A stretch of DNA of 64,000 bases from an uncultured Actinomycetes bacterium (GTDB lineage: Bacteria; Actinomycetota; Acidimicrobiia; Spongiisociales; DATADW01). Location of the stretch: NCBI GenBank assembly GCA_963824995.1, contig CAWGRK010000002.1:62001-126000 (forward strand), written 5' to 3'. Positions 12,370 to 50,626 of this stretch are shown here, one piece after another. Positions within the stretch are counted from its first letter, which is position 1, and every line of letters starts with the position of its first letter. Made by a program: the position numbers and the translations under genes. The notes below the pieces were generated by a model. It had not been told where the DNA came from, ran no database searches, and saw only the letters and a list, made by a program, of their open reading frames with translations.

Positions 12370-12445
12370 GCTCGCTCGCTTGCCGTCTGCCGTCTGCCGT
12401 CTGACGGCAGCCGGCGGACGGCGAGACGGAGCGAAGCGAGCGAGC
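12370..12445. repeat. 76-nt hairpin built around a (TGCCGTC)3 array; possible terminator or REP-like element
   Basis: gctcgctcgctt (12370-81) pairs with aagcgagcgagc (12434-45); tgccgtc x3 at 12381-12401 is followed by gacggc-type complements. Confidence 0.75.
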
Positions 12446-16977: not shown

Positions 16978-17006
16978 GGTCGGCTCACGGTAGGGGGTTT
17001 GGATTG

Positions 17007-17057
17007 TCTGCCGTCTGCCGTCTGCCGTCTCGCCGGCCACCACCTACCACCTACCAC
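17007..17057 (+). repeat. Two adjacent heptamer arrays, (TCTGCCG)3 and (CTACCAC)2-3
   Basis: Read directly at 17007-17027 and 17037-17057. Confidence 0.8.
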
Positions 17058-17099
17058 CGGACAGGTACACTCCCCGCCCCCCGTCTCCCCGGTTGGTTG

Positions 17100-20000
17100 A
17101 TGCACTCCACCTTGCCGGCATGGATCGATCCCAGCTTCGAACACGATGCGTGCGGCGTCGGGCTCATAGCCGCCCGCGACGGGCGGTCCTCGTTCCGGAT
17201 GCTGCGGCTGGCGGTCGAGTGCCTGGTCCGGCTCGACCACCGCGGCGCCAAGGCAGCCGACGGCACCGGTGACGGCGCCGGCCTGCTCACCGAGCTGCCT
17301 TATCAGATCATGGAGCGACACTTGGAGGTGGTCGCTCCCGAGGTGCCGGAGCGGGAGCGGCTCGGGTTGGTCATGGCGTTCCTCCCCGCCGATCGACCAG
17401 GGGACGGGCGAGCGATCGTCGACGAGGCCCTTGGCGACCGAGGAGATCGGTTTGCTCTCGTGGCGCGTGGTGCCCATCGACCCGGCGGCGCTGTCGCAAC
17501 GGGCCACTGCCTCGCTCCCTCGAATCGAGCAGGCGATCGTGGCCGCACCGCCCGGGTGGGATGAGGAGACCTTCGAGCGACGTCTCTTCCTCGCCCGGAA
17601 GGCGATGGAGCGCAAGGGTGACCCATCTCGAAGGGTTCACCATCCCGTCCGCATCGTGCCGCACCGTCGTCTACAAAGGGCTGTTCACCGCCAGCAAGAT
17701 CGACCAGTTCTACTGGGACCTGCGCGACCCGACGTTCGAGACCTCGTTCGCCATCTTCCACCAGCGTTACTCGACCAACACGTTCCCGTCGTGGTCGATC
17801 GCCCAGCCGTTCCGCAGCGTCGCCCACAACGGCGAGATCAACACCATCCGTTCCAACCGGGCGTGGATGGTGGGGCGTGAGGTGAACGCCACCTCGCAGG
17901 TTTGGGGGGAGCGGATCGGCGAGCTCCGACCGTTCCTCGAGTCGGAGCAGTCGGACTCGGGCAGCTTGGACAACGCCTTCGAGCTACTCCTCCGCACCGG
18001 TCGATCGCTTGGCCCACGTCAAGGAGATGCTGCTCCCCGCAGCCTGGGAGAACCTCCCTGATCTCGATCCAGAGCTGCGCGGCTTCTACGAGTACCACGC
18101 CTTTCTCACCGAGCCATGGGATGGGCCGGCTGCGATCGCCGCCACCGACGGCAAGATCCTGCTGGCCGCCATGGACCGCAACGGGCTGCGACCGGCCCGG
18201 TGGGCGATCACCCCCGACGTGGTGCTGGTCGCTTCTGAGGCCGGGGTGTGCCCGGTGGAGGAGGCTCAGGCCATGGCCACCGGTCAGCTCGGCCCGGGAG
18301 AGACGATCACCTTCGAGCCGGCGACGGGGCGCATCGCCTTCGCCGACGAGATCCGCGTCTGAGCTCGCCGCCCTAGCGCCGTACCGGTCGTGGGTCGATG
18401 CCGAAACGCTCTATGTGCAGGACCCATTCGACCCGCTGCAGGACGACCGTTTCGACCCGACACGGTTCAGCCGGGTCTTCGGGTACACCCCCGAGGAGCG
18501 CCGCATGGTGCTCACGGACATGGCCGAGGGGAAGACCCCGACCGGGTCGATGGGGAACGACACGCCGCTGGCCGTCCTCTCGACGACACCTCGGCGGATC
18601 ACCCACTACTTCCACGAGTTGTTCGCCCAGGTGACCAACCCGCCGATGGATCACATCCGCGAGGAACTGGTCATGTCGCTGCGCACCTACCTCGGAGCGG
18701 CGCGGCTCTCTGCTCGAAGAGACCGCCCAGCAGGCTCATCTCATCGAATTGGCGTCGCCGGTCTTGTCGGATGCCGAGTTGGAGCGAATCGTGCGTGCCG
18801 CCGACCCACGCTTCTTCTCCTACTGGATCGGCGCCGTGTTCCCCGCCGCAGAGGGCGGCGACGGGCTGCGGCGCCGGGTGATCGAGGTGTGCGACGAGGC
18901 GGAGGAGGCGGTCCGGGGCGGGGCCAGCATCGTGGTGCTCTCCGACCGCGAGGTCGACGGGGACAACGCTCCCATCCCGATGCTGCTGGCGGTAGGAGCG
19001 GTTCATCACCGACTGATCGAGACCGGGCATCCGCATGGAGCGCCTCGATCGTCGTTGTGTCGGCGGAACCCCGTGACTCCCACGACCTGGCCTGTCTGAT
19101 CGCGTTCGGCGCCTCGGCGGTGAACCCCTATCTCGCCATCGAGCAGTGCTCGGGCGCTGGCCGAGGCAGACGAGATCGCGGTCGACCCGGTCGTGGCACA
19201 GGAGAACTACCGGGCGGCGCTCAACGGCGGGCTGCTCAAGGTCATGTCGAAGATGGGGATCTGCACGGTCTCTGCCTATCGCGGGAGCGAGTTGTTCGAG
19301 GTCATCGGGCTCGATGACGAGGTGGCGGAACTGGCATTCCGTTTCGCACCGAGGAGGATGCCCGGGGCTGGCTTCGACCGGCTAGCCGCTCATGCTCTCG
19401 AATGGCACAAGCGGTTCGCTGACGGCGAGGAGGACCCCGGCGGGTTCTACAAGCACCGGGGTGGCGGCGGTGCTCCACGTCACCGGTCCGGCTGTGGTCC
19501 TCGCCGCGCAGAGGGCGGCGCGTTCGGGCGATCCGGCCGACTGGCAGTCCTACCTCGACAAGATCAACGACCGGCCGCCCATCACTGGTGCGCGACCTGC
19601 TCGAGTTCACCGACCGGCGACCGGTCCCGGTCGACGAGGTGGAGCCTGCCGAGTTCATCATGCGCCGCTTCGTCGGAGCTGCCATGTCTCATGGCGCCCT
19701 TCCAAAGGAGGCGCACGAAGCCTCGCCGAGGCGATGAATGTCATCGGCGCCCTCTCCAACTCCGGGGAGGGCGGCGAGGCGCCGGAGCGGTACGGCTCAT
19801 CACGCAACTCGGGGATCAAGCAGGTGGCATCGGGGCGGTTCGGGGTCACTCCCGTCTACCTGGCTTCGGCCGAGGAACTCCAGATCAAGATGGCTCAAGG
19901 GTCGAAGCCGGGGGAGGGAGGCCAGCTCCCCGGGCACAAGGTCTCGCTTGGAGATCGCCCGATTGCGCCACACCGACCCGGGCATCACCCTGATCTCCCC

Positions 20001-21525
20001 GCCGCCCGCATCACGACATCTACTCGATCGAGGACCTCGCCCAACTCATCTACGACCTCAAGGCATTCAGCCCGATGACCCGGGTCTCGGTGAAGCTGGT
20101 GTCGGAGCCTGGCGTGGGCACGGTGGCGGTCGGGTGTGGCCAAGGCGCAGGCCGACGCCATTCTCATCTCGGGGGCCGAGGGTGGCACCGGGGCATCGCC
20201 GCTGATCTCGATCAAGCACGCCGGGTCTCCATGGGAGTTCGGGCTGGCGGAGGCCCACCAGGTGCTGGTGGCCAACGGCCTCCGCTCCCGGGTTGCCCTG
20301 GAGACCGACGGCGGTCTCAGGACCGGGCGTGACGTGGTGATCGCCGCCCTGCTCGGCGCCGAGCGGTTCGGCTTCGGCACGCTCCCACTGCTGGCTCTGG
20401 GCTGCAAGATGGTGAGGCAGTGCCACCTCAACACCTGCCCGGTCGGGATCGCAACCCAGCAGGAGGATCTCAGGGCCAAGTTCACCGGGGCGCCCGAGCA
20501 GGTGGTCAGCCATCTTCCGATTGCTCGCCGAGGAGATGCGGCTCTACCTGGCGGCTCTCGGCGCCCGCACCGTCGGCGAGGTCATCGGCCGGGCCGACCT
20601 CCTCCGACCGGCCGATGGGGCCCCTCCGGTTGCAGCCACCCTCAAGCCGATGCTGATACGTGCCGAGGGCCGGCGCCGCCATCCCGGCTATCTCCCCATC
20701 GAGCGTCCGGTCCTGGTGCAGAGGATCCTCGAGGATGTCAAGCCGGCGCTGGAGGGCGGCGAGCCGGTAGATCTCTCATACCCGATAGCCAACGTAGACC
20801 GGACTGTGGGCGCCACTGTCTCCGGTGAGGTGACCAAGCGGTACGGCGCCGATGGGCTCCCCGACGGGACGATCACGGTGAGGCTCTCGGGAACCGCCGG
20901 CCAGAGCTTCGGCGCCTGGCTCGCCCCGGGGATCACCCTTCGCCTCGACGGCCCAGCAAACGACTACGTCGGCAAGGGGTTGGGCGGTGGCCGGATCGTG
21001 GTGGCACCCCGCCTGGCGGCGGGAGATGGGACCGAACTCCGGCGGAGGGTTCCCCAGGCGGCCGGTAACGCCGTCCTCTATGGGGCAACCGCCGGCGAGC
21101 TCTTCATGGCGGGACATGCTGGGCAGCGGTTTGCGGTGCGCAACAGCGGCGCCACCGCAGTGGTCGAGGGCGCATCCGACCATTGTTGCGAGTACATGAC
21201 CGGCGGTGTGGTGGTCGTTCTGGGGAGGGTCGGCCGCAACCTCGCCGCCGGGATGACCGGTGGGGTCGCCTATGTATGGGACCCCAACCTCGAGGTCAAC
21301 CGGGTGCTCGCCGACACGGCACCCGCCATGCGACGCCTCCTCGAGTCGGAGGCCGCCGAGCTGCGCTTCCTGGTCGAGCGCCACCTCATGGAGACATCCA
21401 GCGCCACGGCCCGATCGATCCTCGACGACTGGCCCCGCGAGGTCGGCCGCTTCTGGGTTCTCCGTGCCAAGGACCCCGATATTCCCTCCCGTCCCGTAGG
21501 GGAGCGACTGACGGTTAATGCATAA
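17100..21525 (+). CDS. gltB: Glutamate synthase large subunit (many frameshifts)
   Basis: HDACGVG N-terminal Cys, [48 protein letters not shown], [24 protein letters not shown]. Confidence 0.95.
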
Positions 21526-21552: not shown

Positions 21553-21580
21553 CTTCCGTCTTCCGCCTTCCGTCTTCCGA
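21553..21580 (+). repeat. (CTTCCGH)4 heptamer array downstream of gltB
   Basis: cttccgt cttccgc cttccgt cttccga. Confidence 0.85.
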
Positions 21581-21758: not shown

Positions 21759-23168
21759 ATGGCGACCGTCGACATCGATCTCGGCGCCTACAAGCTGGGA
21801 TGGCACGACGAGGACAATTACGCCTTCAAGGCGAAGAAGGGCCTCAGCGAGGACGTGATCCGGGACATGTCCCAGATGAAGGGCGAGCCGCAGTGGATGC
21901 TCGATTTTCGGCTCAAGGCCTACCAGCGGTTCCTCCGGCGCCCCATTCCAACCTGGGGTGGGGGCGGCCTGCTCGACGACATCGACTTCGACAACATCTA
22001 CTACTACGTCAAGCCCGAAGGCGCCCAGGCCAAGGACTGGGACATGGTTCCCGAGTCGATCAAGCAGACGTACGAGAAGTTGGGCATCCCCCAGGCGGAG
22101 CGGAAGTATCTCGCCGGGGTTAGCGCCATGTACGACTCGGAGACGGTCTACCACCGCAATCGAGAGGACCTAGAGAAGCTGGGTGTCCTCTTCTGCGACA
22201 TGGACACCGCGCTCCGCGAGTACCCCGACATCGTCAAGCAGTACTTCGGGACGGTGATCCCGCCGAACGACAACAAGTTTGCCGCTCTCAACTCGGCAGT
22301 GTGGTCGGGCGGGAGCTTCATTTACGTGCCGCCCGGGGTCCATGTGGACCAGCCGCTCCAGGCCTACTTCCGGATCAACTCGGAGAACATGGGCCAGTTC
22401 GAGCGAACCCTCATCATCATCGACGAGGGTGCCTTCGCCCACTACATCGAGGGCTGCTCGGCGCCTATCTACACGACCGATTCGCTCCATGCCGCCGTGG
22501 TCGAGATCGTGGTCAAGCGGGGTGGTCGTTGCCGGTACACCACCATCCAGAACTGGTCGAACGACGTCTACAACCTGGTGACCAAGCGGGCGGCCGCCTA
22601 CGCCGACGCCACCATGGAATGGGTGGACGCCAACCTGGGGTCGAAGCTGACGATGAAGTACCCCGCGGTGTGGTTGATGGAGGAGGGCGCTCACGGCGAG
22701 GTTCTCTCCATCGCCTTCGCCGGCGAGGGGCAGCTTCTCGACGCCGGGGCCAAGATGGTGCACGTGGCGCCGGATACGACCTCGACCATTATCTCCAAGT
22801 CGATCTCCAAGGGTGGCGGACGCACCTCCTACCGTGGGCTCGTCCGTGTCGAACCAGGTGCTGAGAAGGCGCGGTCGTTCGTGCGGTGTGACGCCCTCAT
22901 CCTCGATGAGGCGTCGCGCTCCGACACCTATCCATACATGGAGATCGAGGAGAACGACACCCAGATCGGCCACGAGGCGACCGTCTCCAAAGTGGGGGAG
23001 GACCAGCTCTTCTATCTGATGAGCCGTGGCCTCTCCGAGGAGGAGGCGACCTCGATGATCGTGGCCGGCTTCATCGAGCCGATCGTGCGCGAACTGCCCA
23101 TGGAGTACGCCGTCGAAATGAACCGATTGATCGAGCTCAATATGGTGGAAGCCGGTGCCGTTGGCTAG
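21759..23168 (+). CDS. sufB: Fe-S cluster assembly protein SufB
   Basis: Intact [53 protein letters not shown]. Confidence 0.97.
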
Positions 23169-23183
23169 GGCGCTGCGCCTCTT

Positions 23184-23214
23184 AGTACTTAGTACTTAGT
23201 ACCTAGTACTTAGA
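23184..23214 (+). repeat. (AGTACTT)4-AGA array, left arm of the inverted repeat
   Basis: agtactt agtactt agtacct agtactt aga. Confidence 0.92.
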
Positions 23215-23259
23215 CCGGAAGGGTGGTCGGGGCTGGATGCATGTGGTACATCGGCACCG

Positions 23260-23616
23260 ATGCATGACTATCAGCGACTTGAGGTGTGGCAGCGGGCCCG
23301 GTCGGTAACCACGGACGTGTATCGAGTGACGGCGACGTTTCCCAGAGCGGAGCTGTTCGGTCTCACGGCGCAGATGCGTCGAGCTGCGATCTCGGTCAGC
23401 GCAAACCTCGCCGAGGGCTCAGGGCGAGCGACCAACCAGGACTTCGCAAGATTCCTGTCGATGGCGATCGGATCTGCAAGCGAGCTCGAGGCGGAGACGA
23501 TCCTCGCCAGCGATCTGGGCATGATCGACGACGACACCGCTGTGGGTCTTGGGCGAAGCATCGACGAGGTCCGACGGATGCTCAACGCCTTGCAGCGCTC
23601 TCTTTCTAAGTACTAA
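23260..23616 (+). CDS. Four-helix-bundle protein (23S rRNA IVS protein/Avd-like family)
   Basis: YQRLEVWQRA, FPRAELFGLTAQMRRAAISVSANLAEGSGR, FARFLSMAIGSASELE; 118 aa. Confidence 0.92.
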   Translation: MHDYQRLEVWQRARSVTTDVYRVTATFPRAELFGLTAQMRRAAISVSANLAEGSGRATNQDFARFLSMAIGSASELEAETILASDLGMIDDDTAVGLGRSIDEVRRMLNALQRSLSKY

Positions 23617-23635
23617 GTACTGAGTACTAAGTACT
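23605..23635 (-). repeat. (AGTACTT)4-AGA array, right arm; supplies the TAA of the four-helix gene
   Basis: Reverse complement reads agtactt agtactc agtactt agtactt aga. Confidence 0.92.
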
Positions 23636-23642
23636 TGTCTGA

Positions 23643-24575
23643 TCAGACCAGCGCCTCCAGGTCAATGGAGCATGACGGGTGGCGCAGCTTTGCCAGTCCT
23701 CTGCCCTCGATCTGGCGGACGCGCTCTCTGGTCAGGTTGAAGACCTTTCCAACCTCGGACAGCGTGCGCGGCTCGCCGCCGTCCAGGCCGAAGCGAAGCA
23801 GGATCACCTGCTGCTCGTCCTCGTCGAGCACCGAGAGAGCCCGCACCAGGTGCTGGCGTCGCAGGACGTCAACGGTGTGGATGAACGGGTCGGGGGTCCG
23901 CTCGTCCTCGACGAAGTCCTGCAACTCAGCGTCACCGTCTTCGCCCACCGGCCGGTCGAGGGAGACGGTGTCGCCCGGCGCCTCGAGCGCAGCCTGGACC
24001 CGCTCCAGATCTAGCCCGCTGGCCTCGGCGATCTCCTCCAGGGTCGGTGGCCGGCGCAGATCCTCGATCAGGGCTTGCTCGGTGTCCTGGACTGTGCGGA
24101 CCACATCCACCATGTGCACCGGCAGGCGGATGGTCCGCGCCTGGTTCCCCAGCCCCCGCGTGATCGCCTGACGGATCCACCAGGTTGCGTAGGTGGAGAA
24201 CTTGAATCCCTTGCGCCAGTCGAACTTCTCCACGGCGCGGATCAAACCGAGGTTGCCCTCCTGGATGAGATCGAGCAGATCGAGACCACGGCCGTTGTAT
24301 CGCTTGGCGATGCTGATCACGAGCCGGAGATTGGCCCGAATGAAGTTCATCTTGGCCTCATCGCCCTCGTGGATGAGGCGGAAGAGCTTGGCCCGGTCTG
24401 TCGGGGTCAGTTCTTCGCTCGTGTCCAGCTTGTGCGAAGCCCGGCGTCCGGACTCCATCGAGCGGGCGAGCCTGACCTCGTCTTCGGCGGTGAGGAGCAG
24501 ATGGGCGGAGACCTCTTCGAGGTAGATCCCAACGGTGTCGGCGACCGACACCGCCTCCCGCCCGTTCTTTGACAT
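23643..24575 (-). CDS. RNA polymerase sigma-70 factor, RpoD-like without region 1.1 (group 2 type)
   Basis: ANLRLVISIAKRY, DLIQEGNLGLIRAVEKFD, KFSTYATWWIRQAI, TRERVRQIE. Confidence 0.92.
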   Translation of the reverse strand: MSKNGREAVSVADTVGIYLEEVSAHLLLTAEDEVRLARSMESGRRASHKLDTSEELTPTDRAKLFRLIHEGDEAKMNFIRANLRLVISIAKRYNGRGLDLLDLIQEGNLGLIRAVEKFDWRKGFKFSTYATWWIRQAITRGLGNQARTIRLPVHMVDVVRTVQDTEQALIEDLRRPPTLEEIAEASGLDLERVQAALEAPGDTVSLDRPVGEDGDAELQDFVEDERTPDPFIHTVDVLRRQHLVRALSVLDEDEQQVILLRFGLDGGEPRTLSEVGKVFNLTRERVRQIEGRGLAKLRHPSCSIDLEALV

Positions 24576-24763
24576 CCCCCTGCGACCTTCCCGGCGGGGA
24601 CCGTGAGGGTTGCCCCTGATGCCCGCCTGCGCACGTTCGCGGTTTATTTTGACCCGCTGACCAGGCACAACGTAACACGGAAAATGCTGGGATGCAATCG
24701 GCCGCATCGCCGAGAACGCGAAGAACCAATCAACATTCGAGGCGCCGCTACCCTTCCAGGCCC

Positions 24764-26314
24764 ATGTTCGAGCGCACGGCGCGGCGCACTCTCCCCATGG
24801 CACTACCGCTGTTGTGCCTGATCGTTCTACCGGCCTGTGTCGCCGGGCCAATCGCCGTGCTCGGCGAGACGGGACCCCCGCCTCCAGGTTTGGCCGGTCC
24901 GTTGCCCCAGGTGCAGGTGATGGTGGTCGACGACGAGGGCAACCCGGTGGCGGACGCAGCAGTTCGCTTCGACGGGACGACTCCTGTCGTGACCGGGAGT
25001 GATGGTCTTGCCGCTGCGGATTGGCCGGGTCGACCGATAGAGGTGAGTGCGAGGGGACCCGGGCTGCGGCCCGCCTCGGCGCAGATCGAGTCGCTGATCG
25101 AGGAACCGCTCCAGGTCATTCTCGAGCCGGTGGTGCTCAACGGCAGGGTGGTGACGAATTCGGGCGAGGCCATACCCGGGGTCGAAGTGACCCTCGGCGA
25201 GCAAAAGGCGGTGAGCGACGATTCCGGGAGGTTCACCCTCCGCAGGGCGACAAAGGGTGAGATCACGGCATGGATGCCTGCGTGGGAGCAGGCGCGGGTT
25301 CCCTGGGACGGACGAAGCAGGCGGGTCACCGTCGAAATGAACCCCCTGATGGTCCGAGGTCTCCACGTGGCTGGATGGCTCCCCGCCAACGAAGAGGTTT
25401 GGCCCGAACTCTTGGGTCTCGTCGAGCGCACCGAGCTCAACGCAATGGTGGTGGACATCAAGGACGAGTCGGGTTCGATCTTCCACGACAGCAAGGTGGA
25501 GGTGGCTACCAGCGCCGGTGCGCTCAAACCGGAATACGACATCGAGGAGCTTGCCGCCGAACTTCACGAGAGGGGCTTGTATCTCGTTGGTCGGATCGTT
25601 GTATTCCAGGACCCGATCTCGGCCCGCGCCATTCCCGCGATGGCCATCCGCGACACCTCGACCCATGAGCCCTTCAACAAGAACGGCCAGTGGTTTCTCG
25701 ACCCCACCGATGCCCGCGCCCGGCAATACGCCTTGGACCTGGCGGTGGAAGCGTGCGAAAGCGGGTTTGACGAGATCCAGTTCGACTATGTCCGCTTCCC
25801 CGACGGCTATCCGGTAACTGCCCGCTTCGACGGGCCGGCCGACGAATCGGCAAGGGTCGAGACGATCACCGGTTTCCTAGAGACCGCCGAACAGCTGCTC
25901 AACCCGAAGGGTTGCGCAGTCGCCGCCGACATCTTCGGCTTCATAATCTCGATCGAGAGCGACGGTGGGATCGGCCAGCGTCTTGAGGAGCTGTCTCATG
26001 CGGTGGATGTGGTGTCGCCCATGGTTTATCCCAGCCATTACTCGACGGGATGGTTCGACAAGGACTGCCCCAACGACCACCCGCATGACACGGTCGCGGG
26101 TGCTCTCGACGACGGGCTGCCCCGCCTCCCGGCGACGGCTGTGCTTCGGCCCTGGATCCAGGACTTCGATGGGAGCTACGCCTGCGGTTCGACGGGCAAG
26201 ACGGTCACCCAGGTGCAGTCCCAGATCGAAGCGGCCACCGAGCGCGGGCTGGGATACATGGTGTGGAACGCCGCCAGTTCGTTCACCGAGGATGCCTTCC
26301 GCCTCGACGAGTGA
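24764..26314 (+). CDS. Putative glycoside hydrolase (DUF4015-like TIM barrel) with N-terminal carboxypeptidase-regulatory-like domains; probable lipoprotein
   Basis: LPAC; NAMVVDIKDESG, RIVVFQD, GFDEIQFDYVRFP, SPMVYPSHY, RPWIQDF. Confidence 0.82.
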   Translation: MFERTARRTLPMALPLLCLIVLPACVAGPIAVLGETGPPPPGLAGPLPQVQVMVVDDEGNPVADAAVRFDGTTPVVTGSDGLAAADWPGRPIEVSARGPGLRPASAQIESLIEEPLQVILEPVVLNGRVVTNSGEAIPGVEVTLGEQKAVSDDSGRFTLRRATKGEITAWMPAWEQARVPWDGRSRRVTVEMNPLMVRGLHVAGWLPANEEVWPELLGLVERTELNAMVVDIKDESGSIFHDSKVEVATSAGALKPEYDIEELAAELHERGLYLVGRIVVFQDPISARAIPAMAIRDTSTHEPFNKNGQWFLDPTDARARQYALDLAVEACESGFDEIQFDYVRFPDGYPVTARFDGPADESARVETITGFLETAEQLLNPKGCAVAADIFGFIISIESDGGIGQRLEELSHAVDVVSPMVYPSHYSTGWFDKDCPNDHPHDTVAGALDDGLPRLPATAVLRPWIQDFDGSYACGSTGKTVTQVQSQIEAATERGLGYMVWNAASSFTEDAFRLDE

Positions 26315-27008
26315 TCGATCGGCGCTGACCGAGTTCAACGATCAACTGATCGAGTGTCGCCGCTGCCCGAGGCTCGTCGCCTGGAGGGAGCAGGTCGCCC
26401 GGGATCGCCGTCGGGCCTTTGCAACCGAGGAGTACTGGGGGCGACCGGTTCCAGGCTACGGCGACTCGGAGGCGCCCATACTGATCGTTGGTCTAGCTCC
26501 CGCCGCCCATGGGGGTAACCGCACCGGCCGGGTCTTCACCGGAGATCGCTCCGGGGACTTCCTATTCGGGTCGCTGTATCGCGTCGGACTGGCCAACCAA
26601 CCGACATCAACACACCGTGGCGACGGGTTGCGACTGAACGACGTCTACATCACGGCGATGGTGCGCTGTGCCCCTCCCGGGAATCATCCTGACCGCTCCG
26701 AGCAGGAGGCGTGCCAGTCCTGGCTGCTGGCGGAGTGGCGGCTTCTGGTCCGGGTGCAAGTGGTGGTGGCGCTCGGTCAGATGGCCCACGACGGCGTGCT
26801 GTCGGCTCTGACATCGTTGGGCGTGGAATTGCGGTCGCCCCGTGCTCGCTTCGCCCACGGAGCGCGGTTCGACCTCGGGCCGGAGAGCCCTCTTCTCCTC
26901 GACAGCTACCACCCCAGCCAGCAGAACACCTTCACCGGCAGGCTGACGGAGGAGATGTTGGATGAGGTCTTCAAGCGAGCTAGAGAGGAACTCAGGCGAA
27001 GTACTTAG
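26311..27008 (+). CDS. Uracil-DNA glycosylase family 5 (UdgB type); start uncertain
   Basis: CRRCPRL Fe-S motif, GLAPAAHGGNRTGRVFTGD, RCAPP, YHPSQQNTFTG. Confidence 0.9.
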
Positions 27009-27030
27009 TACTTGGTACTTGGTACTTAGA
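27000..27030 (+). repeat. (RGTACTT)4-AGA array overlapping the UDG stop
   Basis: agtactt agtactt ggtactt ggtactt aga. Confidence 0.9.
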
Positions 27031-27122
27031 CAGAACAGCCAGCCTGTCGGTTGCGAGCCGTCCCTTTTACGCCCAGTTGACCGCCGACCTCGTACGGTCG
27101 GGCCATCGGTACCGTTTCGGAC

Positions 27123-27815
27123 ATGCGGATCCTCGTGGTGGAGGATGAGCCAGATCTGGCGGCGGCCGTCGCCAAGGGGCTGAGGCGCGACGGGTACGCG
27201 GTCGACACTGCCAGCGACGGCGATGGCGCTCTTTATCGGCTTGCCTCGGCCGAGTACGACCTGGTTTGTCTCGACCTCAACCTGCCCGACATCGACGGTC
27301 GCCAGATCTGCAGAGCGATACGCACCGATCCTGACGCCACCTTCGGCGACGCCCCGCCACGGGTGCTCATGCTCACCGCACGTGATGCGCTCGACGATCG
27401 TGTCGGAGGGTTGGACGATGGGGCTGACGACTACCTGGTCAAGCCGTTCGACTTCCCCGAGCTCCAGGCACGGGTTAGGGCGCTCCTCAGGCGTGACCGC
27501 CCACACCGTGGTTCCCTTCTCCGTCATGGCCCGGTCGAGCTCGACGAAGCCGGGCACACCGCCACCGTTGGCCGTGTTCCCATCGAGTTGACCGCCAAGG
27601 AATTCGCCCTCCTCCGCTACTTCCTCCTCCACCCCGCCGAGGTGATCTCCGCCGAGCAGTTGCTCGAGCACGTCTGGGACGAACACGCCGATCCTTTCAC
27701 CAACACCGTGCGGGTGACGCTCTCCAATCTCAGGCGGAAACTGACTACCGCCGGGTCGGGCGAGTTGATCGACACCATGGTCGGGGCGGGATACCGATTG
27801 GCTCCGGATGGTTGA
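27123..27815 (+). CDS. OmpR-family response regulator
   Basis: VVEDE, LDLNLP, GADDYLVKPF, winged-helix GAGY; TACCGT 7 nt upstream. Confidence 0.93.
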   Translation: MRILVVEDEPDLAAAVAKGLRRDGYAVDTASDGDGALYRLASAEYDLVCLDLNLPDIDGRQICRAIRTDPDATFGDAPPRVLMLTARDALDDRVGGLDDGADDYLVKPFDFPELQARVRALLRRDRPHRGSLLRHGPVELDEAGHTATVGRVPIELTAKEFALLRYFLLHPAEVISAEQLLEHVWDEHADPFTNTVRVTLSNLRRKLTTAGSGELIDTMVGAGYRLAPDG

Positions 27816-29089
27816 GAGGCTGCCCGAGTGGATGCGTTCGGTCCGGTTCCGATTGGCCATCACCTACTCGGTGTTGGTCTTCGCCTTGGCCCTGGTTGTG
27901 CTGGGAGCGGTGAACCTCGGTCTGAGCAGGGCGTTGAGCGGTCAGCCGGTGGTGCAGGAGGTGGTGTTCCCCAGTCTGAGCCGCACGCTGGGCGGGTTCG
28001 AGCTGCAGCTCACCAGGGCGCGCATGGTTGATCTGGAACGGCTGGTCAACGAGCGTGCGCTCGACAACCTGCGGCGCTACTCGCTCTACACGGTGGCGTT
28101 TCTCTTCCCACTGAGCGTGGTGATCGGGTGGCTGGTGGCCGGCCGAGCACTCCGTCCGGTGGAGAGGATCGGCGGGGTTGCCCGCGAGATCCAGTCGACC
28201 GACCTCAGCAGACGAATTCGGCTGGGCGGGACCGACGACGAGTTCAAGCGGCTCGCCGACACGTTCGACGCCATGCTCGACCGGTTGGAGAAGGGGCAAC
28301 CGGGACCAGCGGGCGTTCGTCGAGGACACCACCCACGAGCTGCGCAACCCGCTGGCGGTGATGGCGACCACTCTCGACGTCGCCCTATCCGACCCCGACG
28401 CCGACGTCGAGTCGCTCCGTCACGCCGGCGAGGTTGTCCGCCGCACCATCGACCGCACCTCGCGGACGGTGGACGAGTTGGTGACGTTCGCCCGCCAGGA
28501 CCAACGCGCCTCTCGCTGGCTCCCGTTCCCGCTGGTCCCGCTGCTGGAGGAGTCGGTCGGGGACTATCGGGTGGCAGCGGCGGCGAGAGGTGTCGACCTC
28601 CGGACGGGGAGCGCGGCCGAGACCACGGTCGAGGGTGATCGCGACGTCTCTGAAACGCGCCCTGGGCAACCTTCTCGACAACGCGGTGCGACTCGCCCCC
28701 GAAGAATCGGAGATCGTGGCAGCTGTGGGTCGACCGGCTCGTGGGCGTGGATGTCGGTGACCGACCAAGGCCCGGGGATCTCCGAAGAGGTCCACGAGCG
28801 GATCTTCGAGCGCTCTTGGGGAGCAGCCGACCAGCACGACCGGACCCGTCGCCGCTCCGGCCTCGGATTGGCCATCGTCCGCCAGGTGATGGCGGGTCAC
28901 GGCGGGCTGGTCACGATCAGGTCTTCAGCCGCGATCGGGCTCGACGTTCTGCGCTGTGGTTGCCTCTCGACCGGAGCGCCCGGCCGAGGATGTCACCGCC
29001 GACGGGGTGCACCCGCTCGAGGATGCAGTCAATCGGTCGTAGCGGTTACCACTGCGGGCGGCCACTCTTTCGCTCACGTTCTGCCGTGA
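27808..29089 (+). CDS. HAMP sensor histidine kinase (frameshifts; 3' end approximate)
   Basis: 2 TM, HAMP, THELRNPL H-box, NLLDNA, DQGPGI, GLGLAI. Confidence 0.88.
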
Positions 29090-29147
29090 CTGGGGTACCG
29101 ATGCGGAACTTGTGTCACGCACGAACGGGGGAGCCAGTCCAGGTGAC

Positions 29148-29173
29148 ATTCGCACTACAGCCGTAGTGCCAAT
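29148..29173. promoter_or_regulatory. Candidate Suf operator palindrome, copy 2
   Basis: ATTcg-CACTAC-agcc-GTAGTG-ccAAT. Confidence 0.6.
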
Positions 29174-30476
29174 ACCATCGAATCGTCTGATGCGTCGCTC
29201 GACCGATCCACTCTCGACGGCTTGATCGCACGCGACCCCGACTGGGTCGGGGAGCTCCGGCGCGCCGGTTTCGAGTGGCTCGAGAAGCTCGACGTACCGA
29301 CAGGCGCCGAAGAGGAATGGCGCTATGTCGAAGTTCCCGGGGACCCGGCATCGCTTCCGGTTGGCCGACCGGGCGGGGGATCCGATGGAGAGCGATGACG
29401 TCGATAGAGCCTTCGTTCGGGTAGCCGGGCGAGCCCAGGTGGTGGATGGCACCACCGTGGACATCGAGTCGGATGAGAGCACCGGCGTCCTGTTCGCCCC
29501 GATTGCCGCGGCATACACGGCTAATGAGGCCGAACTTCGCGGTGCGTATATGCAGGCGGTCGATCCCGGTCTAGACCGGTTCGCCGCCGCTCATGCCGCA
29601 TTCAGCACGGACGGGGTCTTCGTCTACCTGCCGCCTGGGGTCGCCGTGGCCGATCCGTTCGTCATAGACATCCAGGGCGTTAGCACCGATTCGGTGAGTT
29701 TTCCGCATGTGACCGTGGTGGCGGAGAGGAACTCCGAGGCGTCCATCGTGATCCGCTACCGCTCCGCCCCGGGGGTGGAGTTGGCGATGGTGCCGCAGGT
29801 GGAGGCATCGGTACGCGACGGTGCGAGGTTGCGGCTCACCACCGTCCAGCAACTCGATGAGGCGGCGACCACCATCGCCCATCAGCGTCTCGACCTGGGG
29901 CGCGACGCCACCGCGCTGCTCGGCGAGGTCGGTTTGGGCGGGCGTTTTGGCCGGCTCGATCTCGGGATCGACCTGTTGGGGAGCGGGGGCACCGCCGACG
30001 TGGTGGGGATCTACTACGGCGAGCATGAGCAGGTGCTCGACTACCGGCTTCTCATCGACCACTTCGGGCCGAGCACCTCGTCCAAGGTCTTCCTCAAGGG
30101 TGCGGTGGAGGACACCGCCAACTCGGTGTTCACCGGGATGGTGAAGATCGAACCAGACGCCGCCAAGACCTCGGCCTTCGAGACCAACCGCAACCTGGTG
30201 CTCTCCGATGGAGCGAAGGCGAACTCCGTCCCCAACCTCGAGATCCTGTGCAATGACGTGATCTGCGGCCACGCATCGTCCGTAGGACCGCTCGACGAGG
30301 ACCAGATCTACTACCTCGAGAGCCGCGGATTGCCGTCGGACCGAGCGGCCCGACTGCTCGTCCGCGGCTTCTTCGAGGAGGTAATAGCCCGCCTTCCCCA
30401 TCCGCAATTGGCCGGCCCGGTACGGAGTGCAGTCAACCGAAAGTTCGTCACCGCACAGGAAGAGGGCCGGGTATGA
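29166..30476 (+). CDS. sufD: Fe-S cluster assembly protein SufD (frameshift near 29340; start approximate)
   Basis: N-terminal EEWRY; NRNLVLS, PNLEI, CGHASSVG, YLESRG. Confidence 0.9.
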
Positions 30477-30807
30477 GCGAGGAGTGGGTCCGGATCGGAC
30501 CGCTCGACGACCTGCCCGATGGGAGGGGAGTGCCGCGTGGAGGCGGGAGACCAGCGGATCGCAGTGTTCCGGGTCGGCAGCGAGGTGTTCGCCGTGGGCG
30601 ACCGGTGCAGCCATGCCGAGGCGTCTCTGGCCGAGGGCGAGGTCTTCGACACCGAGGTCGAGTGCCCCCGGCATGGTTCGGCATTCGATCTGCGAACCGG
30701 CGCCCCGCTTGCCCTGCCCGCCACCCGGCCGGTTCCCGACCTACCAGGTGAGGGTGGAAGGCGGGATCGTCCTTCTCTCGCTCCATCCCGTGGAGGTCGA
30801 GGTATGA
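30473..30807 (+). CDS. Rieske-type ferredoxin (frameshifts)
   Basis: DRCSHAEASL...ECPRHGSAFD (CxH/CxxH). Confidence 0.9.
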
Positions 30808-31611
30808 CGGCTGGACTTGCCGTCGAGCAACTCACCGCCGGCGGTCCACGACCGGCAGATACTCACCGGGGTGGACCTCGAGATCCCATTCGGCGAGGTC
30901 CACGCGATCATGGGCCCCAACGGATCGGGCAAGTCGACCCTGTGCCACGTCCTCACTGGCAAGGAGGGCTACGAGGTGTCGGGGACCGCCTCGCTCGATG
31001 GCGAGGATCTGCTCGGATTGACGGTTCCCGAGCGGGCCGAGTTGGGGCTACTCCAGGCGTTCCAATACCCGGTCGAGGTGCCCGGGGTCTCGCTCAGCGA
31101 GTTTCTGCACGAGATAGGCGATGCCCGGGGCATCGACCCCGCCGAGATGGACGGACGCATGGAGCGGGAAGCGACGCGTTTCGAGATGGATCGCTTTCTC
31201 AACCGGGCACTCAACGACGAGCTCTCGGGCGGTGAGAAGAAGCGCTCCGAGATCTTCCAGCTAGCCGTTCTCGAGCCGCGGGTGGCGGTGCTCGACGAGA
31301 TCGACTCCGGGCTCGACATCGATGCGGTGCGCGAGGTGGCGGCGGCGGTCGAGCAGATGCGCGGGCCCGATCTCGGCGTAGTCATGATCACCCACTACAA
31401 CCGGATCCTCCGCTACATCACCCCCGACCGAGTCCATGTGATGGTCGACGGCCGGATCGTCGAATCCGGAGGACCCGAGTTGGCCGAGCAACTCGAGAAA
31501 GAGGGGTACGAGGGCGTTCGCCGCCGCCTCGGCATCCCCGCTCCATCGACCACACCCGAGGTCAGACCCGCCGACCTGCTCACCGACACGCCGTTTGATC
31601 TGAGTACTTAG
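30804..31611 (+). CDS. sufC: Fe-S assembly ATPase SufC, paralog 1 (frameshift near 30840)
   Basis: MGPNGSGKSTL, AFQYPVEVPGV, LSGGEKKR, LDEIDSGLDIDA, ITHY. Confidence 0.9.
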
Positions 31612-31626
31612 TACTTAGTACTCAGA
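31603..31626 (+). repeat. (AGTACTY)3-AGA array supplying the sufC1 stop
   Basis: agtactt agtactt agtactc aga. Confidence 0.9.
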
Positions 31627-31821
31627 CAGGAGCGTGGCCCTCCGCAACGATTCTCTCCCCCCGAACGGGAGGACCCGACGCCGGAGGCGGCGGGGTGGGG
31701 GGCTGGTCCATTCCCAGAGGTGCGAAGCCCGCGTGTCGGGCACCGTTGTGAGTTCGGCAGCCCCCTACCCGCTGCTCTGCAGAATGCGCGGCTGGGCCTT
31801 CCCCCGCGGAACAATCGTCTT

Positions 31822-31842
31822 CTTCCGTCTTCCGTCTTCCGT
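31822..31842 (+). repeat. (CTTCCGT)3 array
   Basis: Read directly. Confidence 0.85.
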
Positions 31843-31852
31843 CTACCTGGGC

Positions 31853-37533: not shown

Positions 37534-38135
37534 TCAGTCCTCGCGCTCCTCGATGTCCCAGCCGTCATTCCAGCGGACCCTCACCTCGGACTTGGAGTCG
37601 TCGCTCTCGAATTCGACCCGCACCTCGTCGGGACCCGCCGTCGTCCACCTCGACCGTCGTAGCCGGGGTTGGGGACCGCCGAGACCAGCGACACCGACGC
37701 CTCCCGACGCCTCGACGACCACGGTTCCCCCCGACACCGACACCGTGCGCCGCTCGGTTGTGGCCGGGGGAGTGGTATCGGGAGTCGATGTCGAGGTGGT
37801 CGAGGTCGATGTCGAGGGGGACGACGTCGAGGTCGTCGAGGTTGAGGAAGTCGAGGAGGAGCCCGAGGTCGATGGGGTCGAGGACGAGGAGCCCGAGCTG
37901 CATCGGTGGTGGTCGTCTGGCGTGGCCGGTTTGCCGAGGTGTTGGTGGTGCTGGTGCGGCGTGGCCGCTCGGTCGAGCTGCTGGTCACCGACTCCGAGTC
38001 ATCGGCCACGGCCTCCACCGGGAACACCGGCTGCTCGGAGACGTCGTTGTCGGCGGCGTCCACGGCGCGCCATGCCACGAAGGTGGCGGCGGCTGTCACG
38101 ACCAACCACAACAGGACGAGACCGAGGCGGCGCAT
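37534..38135 (-). CDS. Membrane-anchored or secreted protein with S/T-rich linker and C-terminal 'VRVEF' domain (frameshifts)
   Basis: MRRLGLVLLWLVV anchor; S/T tract; GGTVVV...PNPGY...DEVRVEFES. Confidence 0.72.
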
Positions 38136-41256: not shown

Positions 41257-42160
41257 CTATCCGATCTCGAGCCGCAGTTCGGAACCGTGGAACTGGAGCC
41301 GGAACTCGATGTCGTCGTCGCCCCGCTCGAACTCGACCCGCACCCGGTCGCCGCCGGCGTCCTCGACTTCGAAATCCCAACCAGAGTTGGCGCTTACGTC
41401 GAGCAGCATCGAACTGACCATCGGAGATCCTCACGGTGACACTCCCGGCGCTCTCGACCTGATAGGTCACCGAGCGATCGGTCGGAGGGGTCTCTTCGCG
41501 CACCGTCGTGCTCGTCGTGTCGTCGTCGATCGTCGTCGAGGTGTCGTCGTCGGAGGTGGTCGAAGTGACGTCATCGTCGAGGGTGGTGCTGGTCGCATCG
41601 TCATCGTCGATGGTGGTCGACGTGTTGTCATCGTCGTCGAACGTCGTGCTCGTCACGTCGTCATCGATGGTGGTTGATGTGTTGTCGTCCAACGTCGTCG
41701 ACGTGTTGTCATCGAACGTCGTCGAGGTGGCGTCATCGTCCACGGTGGACGACGTGGCCCCTGTCGACGATGTCACCGAGGATGAAGTGACCGAGGAGAC
41801 CGACGATGACGTCGTCGATCCGTTGATGCGCCGTACCCGGGTGACCAGATCACCGTTGGCGAATTGGGCGACGAACACCCGGCGAGCCGGTCCCTTGACG
41901 AACTCCACCCGGACCTTGGGACCGGATTGGCGGACGACCTTCGGCGTCCAACCCTCGACGCGCTGGATCGAGACGACCGTGATGCGTCCGCTCTGCACGG
42001 TGACGGTGACGGCGCCTGCCTCGGCAACCGAGAAGCTCCGCTCAGCGGCGTCGGTCGCGGTGGCAGCGTTCCCGTTGTCTTGGAGCGCCTGGCTGATGCC
42101 GACGCCGAGAATCGCAAGCACGGCGGCTGCCGCCAATGCGATCAATCCAACTCTCTTCAC
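41257..42160 (-). CDS. Secreted protein with two 'VRVEF' domains separated by STTxDD repeats (frameshift near 41415)
   Basis: Signal peptide, GGAGG RBS, about 9 STT(I/L/F/S/V)DD(D/N) repeats. Confidence 0.78.
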
Positions 42161-47405: not shown

Positions 47406-47453
47406 GGGGAGGGTATTCCCTGGACGGCAAAGACGGAAGGCGGAAGACGGAAG
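47406..47453 (-). repeat. CTTCCGH array plus flank homologous to 21553-21607
   Basis: First 24 nt identical to 21553-21576, then shared ccagggaa...tcccc. Confidence 0.75.
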
Positions 47454-48798: not shown

Positions 48799-50602
48799 AT
48801 GGGGCACTATCGATCGAACCTGCGGGATATCGAGTTCAACCTGTTCGAGGTCCTCCGGATCCAGGACCAACTCGGCCGGCCCCCCGTTCACCGAACTCGA
48901 CGAGGGGACGGTGCGTGCCGCTCTTGCCGAGATAGAGCGCCTCGCACGGAACGAGTGGGCCGCCAGCTTCGTAAGTGGCCGACCGGAACGAGTTGGTGCT
49001 CGACGACGGGGAGGTCGTCCTCCCCGACGAGATGAAGGCCAGCCTGGCGGCATTGCGTGATGGGGGTTGGGACCGCTTCGGGCTCCCCGAGGAACTTGGC
49101 GGCCACCGGGTCCCCCGGGCCGTGTTCTGGGCCACCCAGGAGCTCTTGCTCGGCGCCAACCCCACCGCCGTCTTCTATGCCTCGGGACCGCTTTTCGCCC
49201 GGCTGCTCAACGACGAGGGAACTCCGGAGCAGCGTCGGATCGCCGCACTGATGATGGAGCGGGGCTGGGCGGGGAGCATGTTGCTCACCGAGCCCGACGC
49301 CGGCTCCGACGTCGGCGCCGGGACAACCCGCGCCATTCACGTCGGGGGTGACCTGTGGCACCTGGAGGGGGTGAAGCGCTTCATCACCGGGGGCGAACAC
49401 GACGGGGCTGAGAACATCATCCACTTGGTGCTCGCTCGCCCGGTCGGCGCCGGCCCCGGCACCAAGGGTCTGTCGCTGTTCATGGTCCCGAAGTGGCTTG
49501 TCGAGCCGGACGAGTCGCTGGGGGAGCGCAACGGGATCGTTGCCACCCGACTCGAGCACAAGATGGGTCTAAGGGGGTCAACCACCTGTGAGCTCACCCT
49601 CGGCGCCGATCGTACGTGTGCAGGCTTCCTCGTGGGAGGGGTCCACGACGGGATAAGACAGATGTTCCGGGTGGTCGAGCACGCCCGGATGACCATCGGG
49701 ACCAAGTCGGCGGCCACCATGTCGACGGGGTATCTCAACGCCCTCGCTTATGCCGGCGAGCGGATCCAGGGCGCCGATCTCACAGAAGCGACCGACAAGT
49801 CGGCGGCGCGGGTCCCCATCATCCGGCACCCCGACGTGCGGCGCATGCTCATGGAGCAGAAAGCGACAGCCGAAGGGCTTCGTGCGCTGGTGCTCTACGC
49901 CGCTGCGGTGCAAGGGGAGGTGGAGACCGCGCCCGACGACTTGTCGCTCGCGGCCCGGCGTGACCTGTTGCTCCCGCTGGTCAAGGGCTATGCCTCCGAG
50001 AAGGCCTACGACGTTCTGTCCGGTTCGCTACAGGTTCTCGGGGGCTCGGGCTACACCCAGGACTACCCGCTCGAGCAGTACATCCGCGACTCGAAGATCG
50101 ACACGGTTTACGAGGGCACGACGGGGATCCAGGCCCTGGATCTCTTCTTCCGCAAGATCGCCCGTGACCAGGGGAAGGCGATCCAGGAACTGCTCGGAGA
50201 GATCAGAGCCTTCGCAAAGGGTGGGCCTGAGGACGACCTGAGCGCAGAACGGGACCTTCTGGGAGGCATCCTCGACGATCTCGAAGCACAGCTTGGAGTG
50301 ATGGTGGACCACCTCATGGCCTCGCTGGGTGGCGACCCCACCCGCATCTACTCGGTGGGGCTTCACACCAACGCCCTGCTCGCCTCGATGTCCGAGGCCG
50401 TGATCTCCTGGCAGCTGCTCCGGCATGCCGAAGTCGCCATGGCGGCGCTGCCCACGGCCACCGACGAGCGCCGTTCTACGAGGGCAAGCTCGCCGCGGCA
50501 AGGTGGTTCGTGCGCCACAGCGCCCCCCAGGTCACGGCCCGCCGCGTCGACGCTGAGTCCGAGGACGGATCGCTCATGCTGTTGGAGGACGGGGCCTTCT
50601 GA
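48799..50602 (+). CDS. Large acyl-CoA dehydrogenase, FadE5-like (frameshifts)
   Basis: MGHYRSNLRDIEFNLFEV, LTEPDAGSDVG, EHKMG, YEGTTGIQALD. Confidence 0.9.
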
Positions 50603-50626
50603 GTACTTAGTACTTAGTACTTAGTA
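50602..50626 (+). repeat. (AGTACTT)3.5 array starting at the ACAD stop
   Basis: agtactt agtactt agtactt agta. Confidence 0.9.

Follow-up and report, generated by a model that had tools for sequence, protein, structure and literature searches.

In REP/RAYT systems, a single gene lies between inverted copies of a repeat, and variants of this repeat that differ between lineages are scattered over the genome. Invertible switches such as fim, hin and the Bacteroides invertons are segments bounded by inverted repeats that occur in both orientations, and cyanobacterial STRR are intergenic heptamer repeats. Intergenic heptamers have also been described as TAACTGA in Beggiatoaceae (PMC4679880) and as GGGAATC in Xanthomonas and Nostoc (PMC4692102). 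The main text of the former raises the speculation that the mobile part is a protein that binds the repeat, and the words 'helix bundle', 'intervening' and 'S23' are absent from the main texts of both. The S23p intervening sequences (IVSs) of 23S rRNA in Coxiella burnetii and Leptospira carry an ORF in a stem loop, with tandem heptamers upstream of the ORF and a copy number that varies among strains, according to the main text of PMC4990558. The same text documents heptamer repeats and RNase III cleavage for the Coxiella IVS, describes its ORF as unexpressed and decaying, and describes the family member Xcc0516 as a homopentameric ring. This four-helix-bundle family has otherwise been noted in cas loci or as Avd-like, as far as the main texts of PMC3936711 and PMC10053308 go.

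We analysed a stretch of 64,000 nucleotides (the window) from an uncultured Acidimicrobiia bacterium, in which a gene of the S23p family is enclosed by inverted heptamer arms. Its protein family, its ORF in a predicted stem loop and its tandem heptamers are those of the 23S rRNA IVSs (PMC4990558). Unlike them, it lies between two convergent protein genes, sufB and a sigma factor gene, at a site with no rRNA match; it inverts, about 170 dispersed arrays match it, and its gene, unlike the Coxiella ORF, is under purifying selection and has a predicted promoter of its own. It shares with REP/RAYT a gene between inverted copies of a genome-wide dispersed repeat. However, the enclosed gene is a PF05635 gene for an all-helical bundle protein, not an HUH/Y1 transposase (PF01797 had 0 matches in the assembly, which is 85% complete), and the repeats are tandem heptamers, not palindromic REPs. 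As in invertible switches, both orientations occur between the same inverted repeats, here across species; in contrast to them, the arms are tandem arrays, there is no tyrosine recombinase on the contig (the three PF00589 matches are all on other contigs), and gene and predicted promoter flip together, so that inversion should not turn the gene on or off. The Beggiatoaceae, Xanthomonas and Nostoc heptamers, as their main texts present them, also have a period of 7, typically 2-6 copies, an intergenic position, an orientation related to gene ends and a partial arrangement in inverted pairs; what differs here is a candidate protein gene between the arrays, whose word tracks them. An insertion sequence or MITE is expected in several near-identical copies at different places, and the genus has two unrelated cassettes per genome at two fixed junctions.

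In open-access main texts we found no paper in which this gene, outside rRNA, is connected with heptamer arrays on either side of it; subscription papers and supplements may differ. In layout, the cassette resembles the known S23p IVS, but it lies outside rRNA and does not belong to that class. It brings together two loose ends. One is the function of the S23p/TIGR02436 proteins, which occur in many phyla and have solved structures but for which no ligand is known; the other is why intergenic heptamers are in excess. We lean, somewhat beyond an even chance, to the reading that the cassette is inherited, that its protein reads its own heptamer word in the arms and in the dispersed arrays, and that the cassette is flipped by host recombination.

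Anatomy of the cassette and fold of its protein

The genome that holds the window is referred to as G000, and its congeners as G001-G005 (six genomes with G000). The locus consists of the following features.

21759..23168, + strand: sufB, left host flank (TIGR01980, 726.9 bits)
23184..23214, + strand: left arm, four AGTACTT-type heptamers with AGA facing inward; begins 15 nt past the sufB stop
23215..23259, + strand: spacer of 45 nt in which a leaderless promoter is predicted; TG-n-TA at 23244-23252 resembles an extended -10, and there is no Shine-Dalgarno sequence
23260..23616, + strand: four-helix-bundle gene (TIGR02436 / PF05635), 118 aa; residue 103 is Glu
23605..23635, - strand: right arm, reverse complement of the left arm (29/31); codes the last three residues and the stop
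23643..24575, - strand: sigma-70 family gene, right host flank, convergent with sufB; start codon uncertain
29325..31611, + strand: sufD (29325-30476) and sufC with a short ORF between them, some 6 kb downstream of sufB

The arms, each of four units and an inward AGA, match at 29 of 31 reverse-complement positions, and the match ends there both outward and inward. The stop codon of the ORF, TAA, lies within the right arm. Owing to the palindromic AGTACT core, the arms double as direct repeats (right versus left, 23/27 identical). The sequence-only reading of this DNA had described a four-helix-bundle gene inside a 31-bp heptamer inverted repeat whose right arm supplies the stop, and this description stands. 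Its assignment to an IVS/Avd-like family and fold was also supported: the 118-aa ORF reaches 115.4 bits against TIGR02436 (cut-off 24), and 119.4 bits against PF05635 (cut-off 33.8). The predicted model has four helices (pLDDT 96.6) and shares its fold with Xcc0516 (PDB 2GSC; TM 0.93, 40% identity), BT_0352 (2RLD; TM 0.80-0.84) and Avd (4DWL; TM 0.82), the accessory protein of diversity-generating retroelements (DGRs). The texts consulted assign neither a function nor a DNA context to these structures. By homology to Xcc0516 and Avd, the protein may form a pentameric ring; it is not net basic (14 K+R, 15 D+E). It is unlike DGR Avd in scoring 20.6 on the Avd profile NF033474, below the cut-off of 80, and the PF00078 reverse transcriptase had 0 matches in the 85% complete G000 assembly; on these two measures the cassette is not a DGR.

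The site of the cassette is a convergent gene end. The sequence-only reading had placed the cassette where sufD would normally follow sufB. This argument falls for the present lineage, since sufD follows within about 1.5 kb of sufB in 0/29 order-level loci (the flank is shorter than 1.2 kb in four of these, and the count leaves out one unpublished genome). Without a cassette, sufB meets the convergent sigma gene directly in G028, G015 and G004. The suf genes of the window are split (21759-31611); between sufB and sufD lie the sigma factor, a DUF4015 protein, a uracil-DNA glycosylase family gene, a response regulator and kinase-like ORFs. The 51-nt sufB/sigma junction of G015, which belongs to another family (L369), has a small degenerate inverted heptamer run and no gene.

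The arms pair in a predicted RNA fold (-220.9 kcal/mol, z -3.5, 0/100 shuffles), which leaves the S23p ORF in a loop closed by a terminal stem of heptamer repeats. One could thus think of an mRNA intervening sequence, in which read-through RNA folds on the arms and RNase III excises the gene, as in the S23p-bearing 23S rRNA IVSs; the heptamer-bearing Coxiella IVS is cut by this enzyme, as its main text reports (PMC4990558), and an RNase III gene is encoded in the genome. A second cassette of G000, treated below, also speaks for this, as it lies antisense within a co-directional carboxylase operon in 6/6 genomes. We nevertheless consider an mRNA IVS improbable. The sequence-only reading had proposed an IVS-like stem in an mRNA context. 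At the window's junction, however, sufB and the sigma gene point toward each other, which leaves no cistron downstream, and excision from an operon mRNA is therefore unsupported; the predicted internal promoter would yield a transcript with a single arm, and solitary arrays, which are the majority, cannot form a stem. Rfam gave no family above threshold at the window locus, nor any rRNA match there, and 0 rRNA matches in the 20 homologue loci that were scanned.

A promoter of the gene's own is predicted within the cassette. In 91 loci, the start codon is preceded at constant spacing by a TT that resembles a -35 and by a TGnTA that resembles an extended -10 (at -35, T in 70%; at -14, G in 67%; at -12, T in 53%; at -11, A in 57%), but the -10 lacks a conserved last T. 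A Shine-Dalgarno sequence is found in 6/91 loci, and the distance from arm to start has a median of 49 nt (n=71). This suggests a leaderless promoter inside the cassette, judged from sequence conservation. A scanner for consensus promoters and terminators found none in the window's copy. A contig from an RNA run among the public runs covers part of the cassette and was rejected as evidence of transcription.

Inversion and loss at the sufB/sigma junction

The cassette in the window is co-directional with sufB. In G001, G002 and G005, the orthologous gene lies at the same junction between the same arms in the opposite orientation, and the switch occurs exactly at the inner arm boundaries. This inversion was absent from the sequence-only reading and came out of the comparison with relatives. 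At the same junction, G004 has one array and no gene, and G003 has only a relic; G006 has a different neighbour. The genus is an unusually clean natural experiment, in which one junction is seen forward, inverted and lost.

Trees of sufB + sigma and of rpoB group G004 with G001, and G003 with G002/G005. Since the empty alleles are nested among full genomes, two losses are the simplest reading. The empty sufB/sigma junctions that the sequence-only reading had expected in relatives were thus found, but they are most simply explained as losses of an inherited gene, not as pre-insertion targets. The empty alleles retain an array or a relic, and a duplicated flank is not evident by eye. The arms, read as direct repeats, would offer a deletion route that leaves one array. 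The gene is 86-89% identical to those of G001 and G005, as its flanks are (87-92%), and its dN/dS against congeners is 0.09-0.25. On these comparisons, the gene is vertically inherited and under purifying selection, and a fresh insertion is disfavoured. Recent transposition in the genus was not found, and only two junctions carry the gene across the six congeners. The assembly of G000 (85% complete) has no transposase.

Inversion within a population is indicated indirectly. Over 265 nt, 14 gaps interrupt the G002 copy, against 0 in its flanks. The final 50 nt of this copy match the reverse-complemented 5' end of the cassette with a local-alignment score of 54 (shuffles: mean 13.7, 0/1000 reaching 54; clean copies: 11-12). 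This local-alignment test was picked after an exact-word test had proved borderline (10 bases versus a 95th percentile of 9). From this indirect evidence, we read the G002 assembly as probably a consensus that blends both orientations; it could also be a fixed template-switch scar or a library artefact. Small indels also fill the cassette interiors at L006 and L010 (G002), L007 (G004) and L005 (G003), with clean flanking genes in G002 and G004. Those of L006 (G002) fit a blend of both orientations, and the other indel-ridden copies, including those at the second junction, gave no clear blend in the same alignment test. An independent soil-metagenome contig joins the gene end, the arm and the sigma gene in the window's orientation. 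Public runs contained at most 21% of the sequence words; in four of them, with low depth over the cassette, no strand-switch joint was seen.

The cassette class in the order and beyond

The sequence-only reading had proposed that homologues would be enriched in flanking inverted arrays, and this was borne out. Among 96 order-level loci, 8 were too close to a contig end; of the 88 with full flanks, 66 are flanked by period-7 inverted arms, compared with 0/175 shifted controls. Beyond the order, 80 cross-phylum loci were fetched and 3 were too short; an inverted repeat with a score of at least 12 flanks 57 of the remaining 77 (two of the set being close relatives of the window) and 3/136 controls. 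At the same threshold, it is found in 31/41 viral-contig loci and 47/64 metagenome loci, two sets that have no controls of their own. Homologues also occur on 34 plasmids. Arm words vary by locus within a loose common frame (G at position 2 in 86%), and paired arms have a median of 3.6 units. Arms built of 6 or 8 bases instead of heptamers are seen at L036, L049, L070, L071, L177, L250 and L251, and period 8 occurs in 7/50 cross-phylum loci.

Fifteen junctions in the order are common to at least two cassettes, and 7/15 have both orientations. Most inverted pairs outside the genus of the window share 37-68% protein identity, so some of them may be separate insertions. Different cassettes can also occupy the same junction, as seen at the second junction and at shared junctions in the order. 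PF05635 matches are found in 80/201 genomes of the order. In a sample of the class, strong matches occur in 17/251 genomes, all in the window's order; the other families sampled had 0 matches at E<=1e-25 and added no new loci.

This patchy spread, the armed copies on viral contigs, the plasmid homologues and the junctions that host different cassettes are all what one would expect of a selfish mobile cassette that inserts just past stop codons and then decays, leaving solitary arrays and gene-less pairs as roleless footprints. We consider this account unlikely, because across six congeners the gene sits at only two junctions, is vertical and is under purifying selection, and because transposase, RAYT and reverse transcriptase are all absent from the 85% complete assembly. 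The dispersed arrays, treated next, also bear on it.

Dispersed arrays, the second cassette and residue 103

G000 has 171 arrays of period 7, against no more than 13 for each of the other periods between 4 and 12. Together with the flanking counts above, this shows that the inverted repeat is no product of chance. The AGTACTT and GACGG word families make up most of them. The genome has exactly two PF05635 genes, and their arms are these two dominant word families. Thus, the link between gene and dispersed arrays that the sequence-only reading had suspected is supported at the level of words: cassette words match genome-wide array words. The window contains the following arrays.

27000..27029, + strand: solitary AGTACTT-type array, overlaps the stop of the uracil-DNA glycosylase family gene
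31603..31622, + strand: solitary AGTACTT array, overlaps the sufC stop
50602..50626, + strand: solitary AGTACTT array, overlaps a stop at a convergent junction
12381..12403, - strand: GACGG-family array, second word family
17006-17035, 21553-21579, 31821-31844 and 47430-47453: other GACGG-family arrays

By a rough gene call, 114/123 arrays of at least three units are intergenic, and convergent junctions are enriched (32/114 versus 237/1793). Arrays follow a strand rule, with one strand at stops (49 versus 20) and the other at starts (37 versus 8). Most are solitary. Forward-reverse pairs within 700 bp mostly have one polarity: AGTACT 6, including the cassette, versus 1, and GACGG 6 versus 0. 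Gene-less inverted pairs, all with the cassette's polarity and enclosing 46-121 nt, lie at G000:C1:82628-82715, C1:282673-282822, C11:3269-3383, C9:88246-88433, C14:19493-19625 and C8:19624-19758. At G000:C15:1261-2146 and C2:241068-241841, inverted GACGG arrays surround ordinary host-type genes. The polarity of the gene-less pairs fits a selfish cassette, and the strand rule would follow if left or right arms had been retained; against this, no gene remnants were found in the gene-less pairs of G000 or at its other arrays.

Words and genes also go together across the order. At least three (AGTACTY)3 matches are present in 11/201 genomes, all 11 with a PF05635 match, and in 0/121 of the genomes that lack one; the five of these 11 that lie outside the genus each have a GTAC-armed cassette. 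(CCCGATG)3 occurs in 5/201 genomes, including 3/3 with that cassette word. Because the genomes are kin, association tests on these tallies, in which the unpublished G021 enters only as a non-matching row, overstate the link. There are exceptions: G004 (78% complete) has 33 AGTACT and 80 GACGG matches and no intact matching cassette, G036 has 6 CCCGATG matches and different cassette words, and in G001 and G003 the cassette's exact word variant is only the second commonest.

The second cassette, outside the window at G000:C2:238807-239432 (L002:1296-1921), has GACGGCG arms and lies antisense between the carboxyltransferase and biotin carboxylase genes of an operon that is co-directional in all six genomes. 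It is unrelated to the first cassette. Its orientation is the same in the six congeners, and its type and arm word differ between sister species. At L007:1357-1376 and 1890-1921 (G004), its two arm words differ and are non-complementary. G005 is sister to G002 (rpoB 97.8%; junction flanks 96-97%), and its second cassette is of the G000 type (80% over 523 nt); typing in G002-G004 relies on indel-ridden copies. The spelling of repeats differs genome-wide to match: (GACGGCG)3 counts are 77 in G000, 61 in G005, 11 in G002, 4 in G001, 3 in G003 and 0 in G004, and A-type variants dominate in G001, G002, G003 and G004. We examined 20 G005 arrays, with units counted by hand; at 9 orthologous arrays, G-type units were 19/36 in G005 and 1/28 in G002. 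This suggests that dispersed arrays change in place, parallel to the resident cassette, although the cassette swap amounts to one or two events. Such a shift toward the resident word, rather than decay, is a further point against roleless footprints of a selfish cassette.

The arrays might instead be ordinary slippage microsatellites made uniform by array-to-array conversion, with the gene as a passenger and the inversion as a passive by-product or an assembly artefact. Host recombination alone suffices to invert DNA between inverted repeats, and whole-protein and word similarity show no correlation across families (rho -0.004). Heptamer arrays without a named gene have been described, at least in the main texts of PMC4679880 and PMC4692102. 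We regard this explanation as very improbable, since 66/88 loci are armed, each with its own word, against none of the controls, the array-rich genomes are the gene-bearing ones, and both orientations occur in clean assemblies and, for one of them, on the independent contig.

Residue 103 may be one link between protein and word. It is Glu in A-type proteins, and the G-type cassettes, those of G000 and G005, encode Ser there. Eight residue-base rules were set in advance, and only the rule that pairs Glu103 with A at word position 1 passed a hold-out of 19 (10/13 versus 1/6; p 0.024 uncorrected, about 0.19 corrected for 8 tests). Its pooled z was 9.7, compared with a null maximum of 6.5, and a tree-aware test, with 5 independent pairs only, gave a median p of 0.125. 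Rules for residue 2 (His-A, Gln-T) were good in training and failed the hold-out; an Asn74-C rule also looked good in training and is not among the rules that passed.

The preferred reading, that of an inherited cassette, can be put as a sequence of steps. Recognition of the heptamer arrays by the protein is likely. The protein would read runs of 3-5 heptamers, in which Glu103 would help to specify the first base, and the leaderless promoter inside the left arm would make expression independent of orientation. As the protein has no recombinase fold, flips would stem either from recombination by the host or from template switching, in each case across the arms; losses would arise from the same arms acting as direct repeats. 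Selection or conversion might keep the arrays, which follow the strand rule at stops and starts, in step with the resident protein, and they would then be candidate binding sites at transcript ends, not dead scars. If binding is true, the family would provide a small scaffold that reads repeats and can be retargeted, and rRNA intervening sequences might have originated from it; the idea can be tested with named ligands and a named residue (Glu103). A broader and tentative extension, which we think has a small chance of being right, is that four-helix-bundle (S23p/Avd-like) proteins in general read, and possibly rewrite, tandem heptamers with sequence specificity, that each gene moves between its own sites as a cassette that can flip, that a cassette swap re-spells dozens of gene-end arrays in place, and that bacterial heptamer repeats, 23S rRNA IVSs and DGR Avd are branches of one system with a residue-to-base code.

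Two minor features of the window may be added. At 17004-21525, a region like the glutamate synthase large subunit, recognised by eye, is split into many overlapping ORFs, which suggests assembly frameshift errors or a pseudogene. At 37690-37890 and 41500-41740, there are low-complexity acidic codon repeats with periods of 15-30, which are probably coding sequence.
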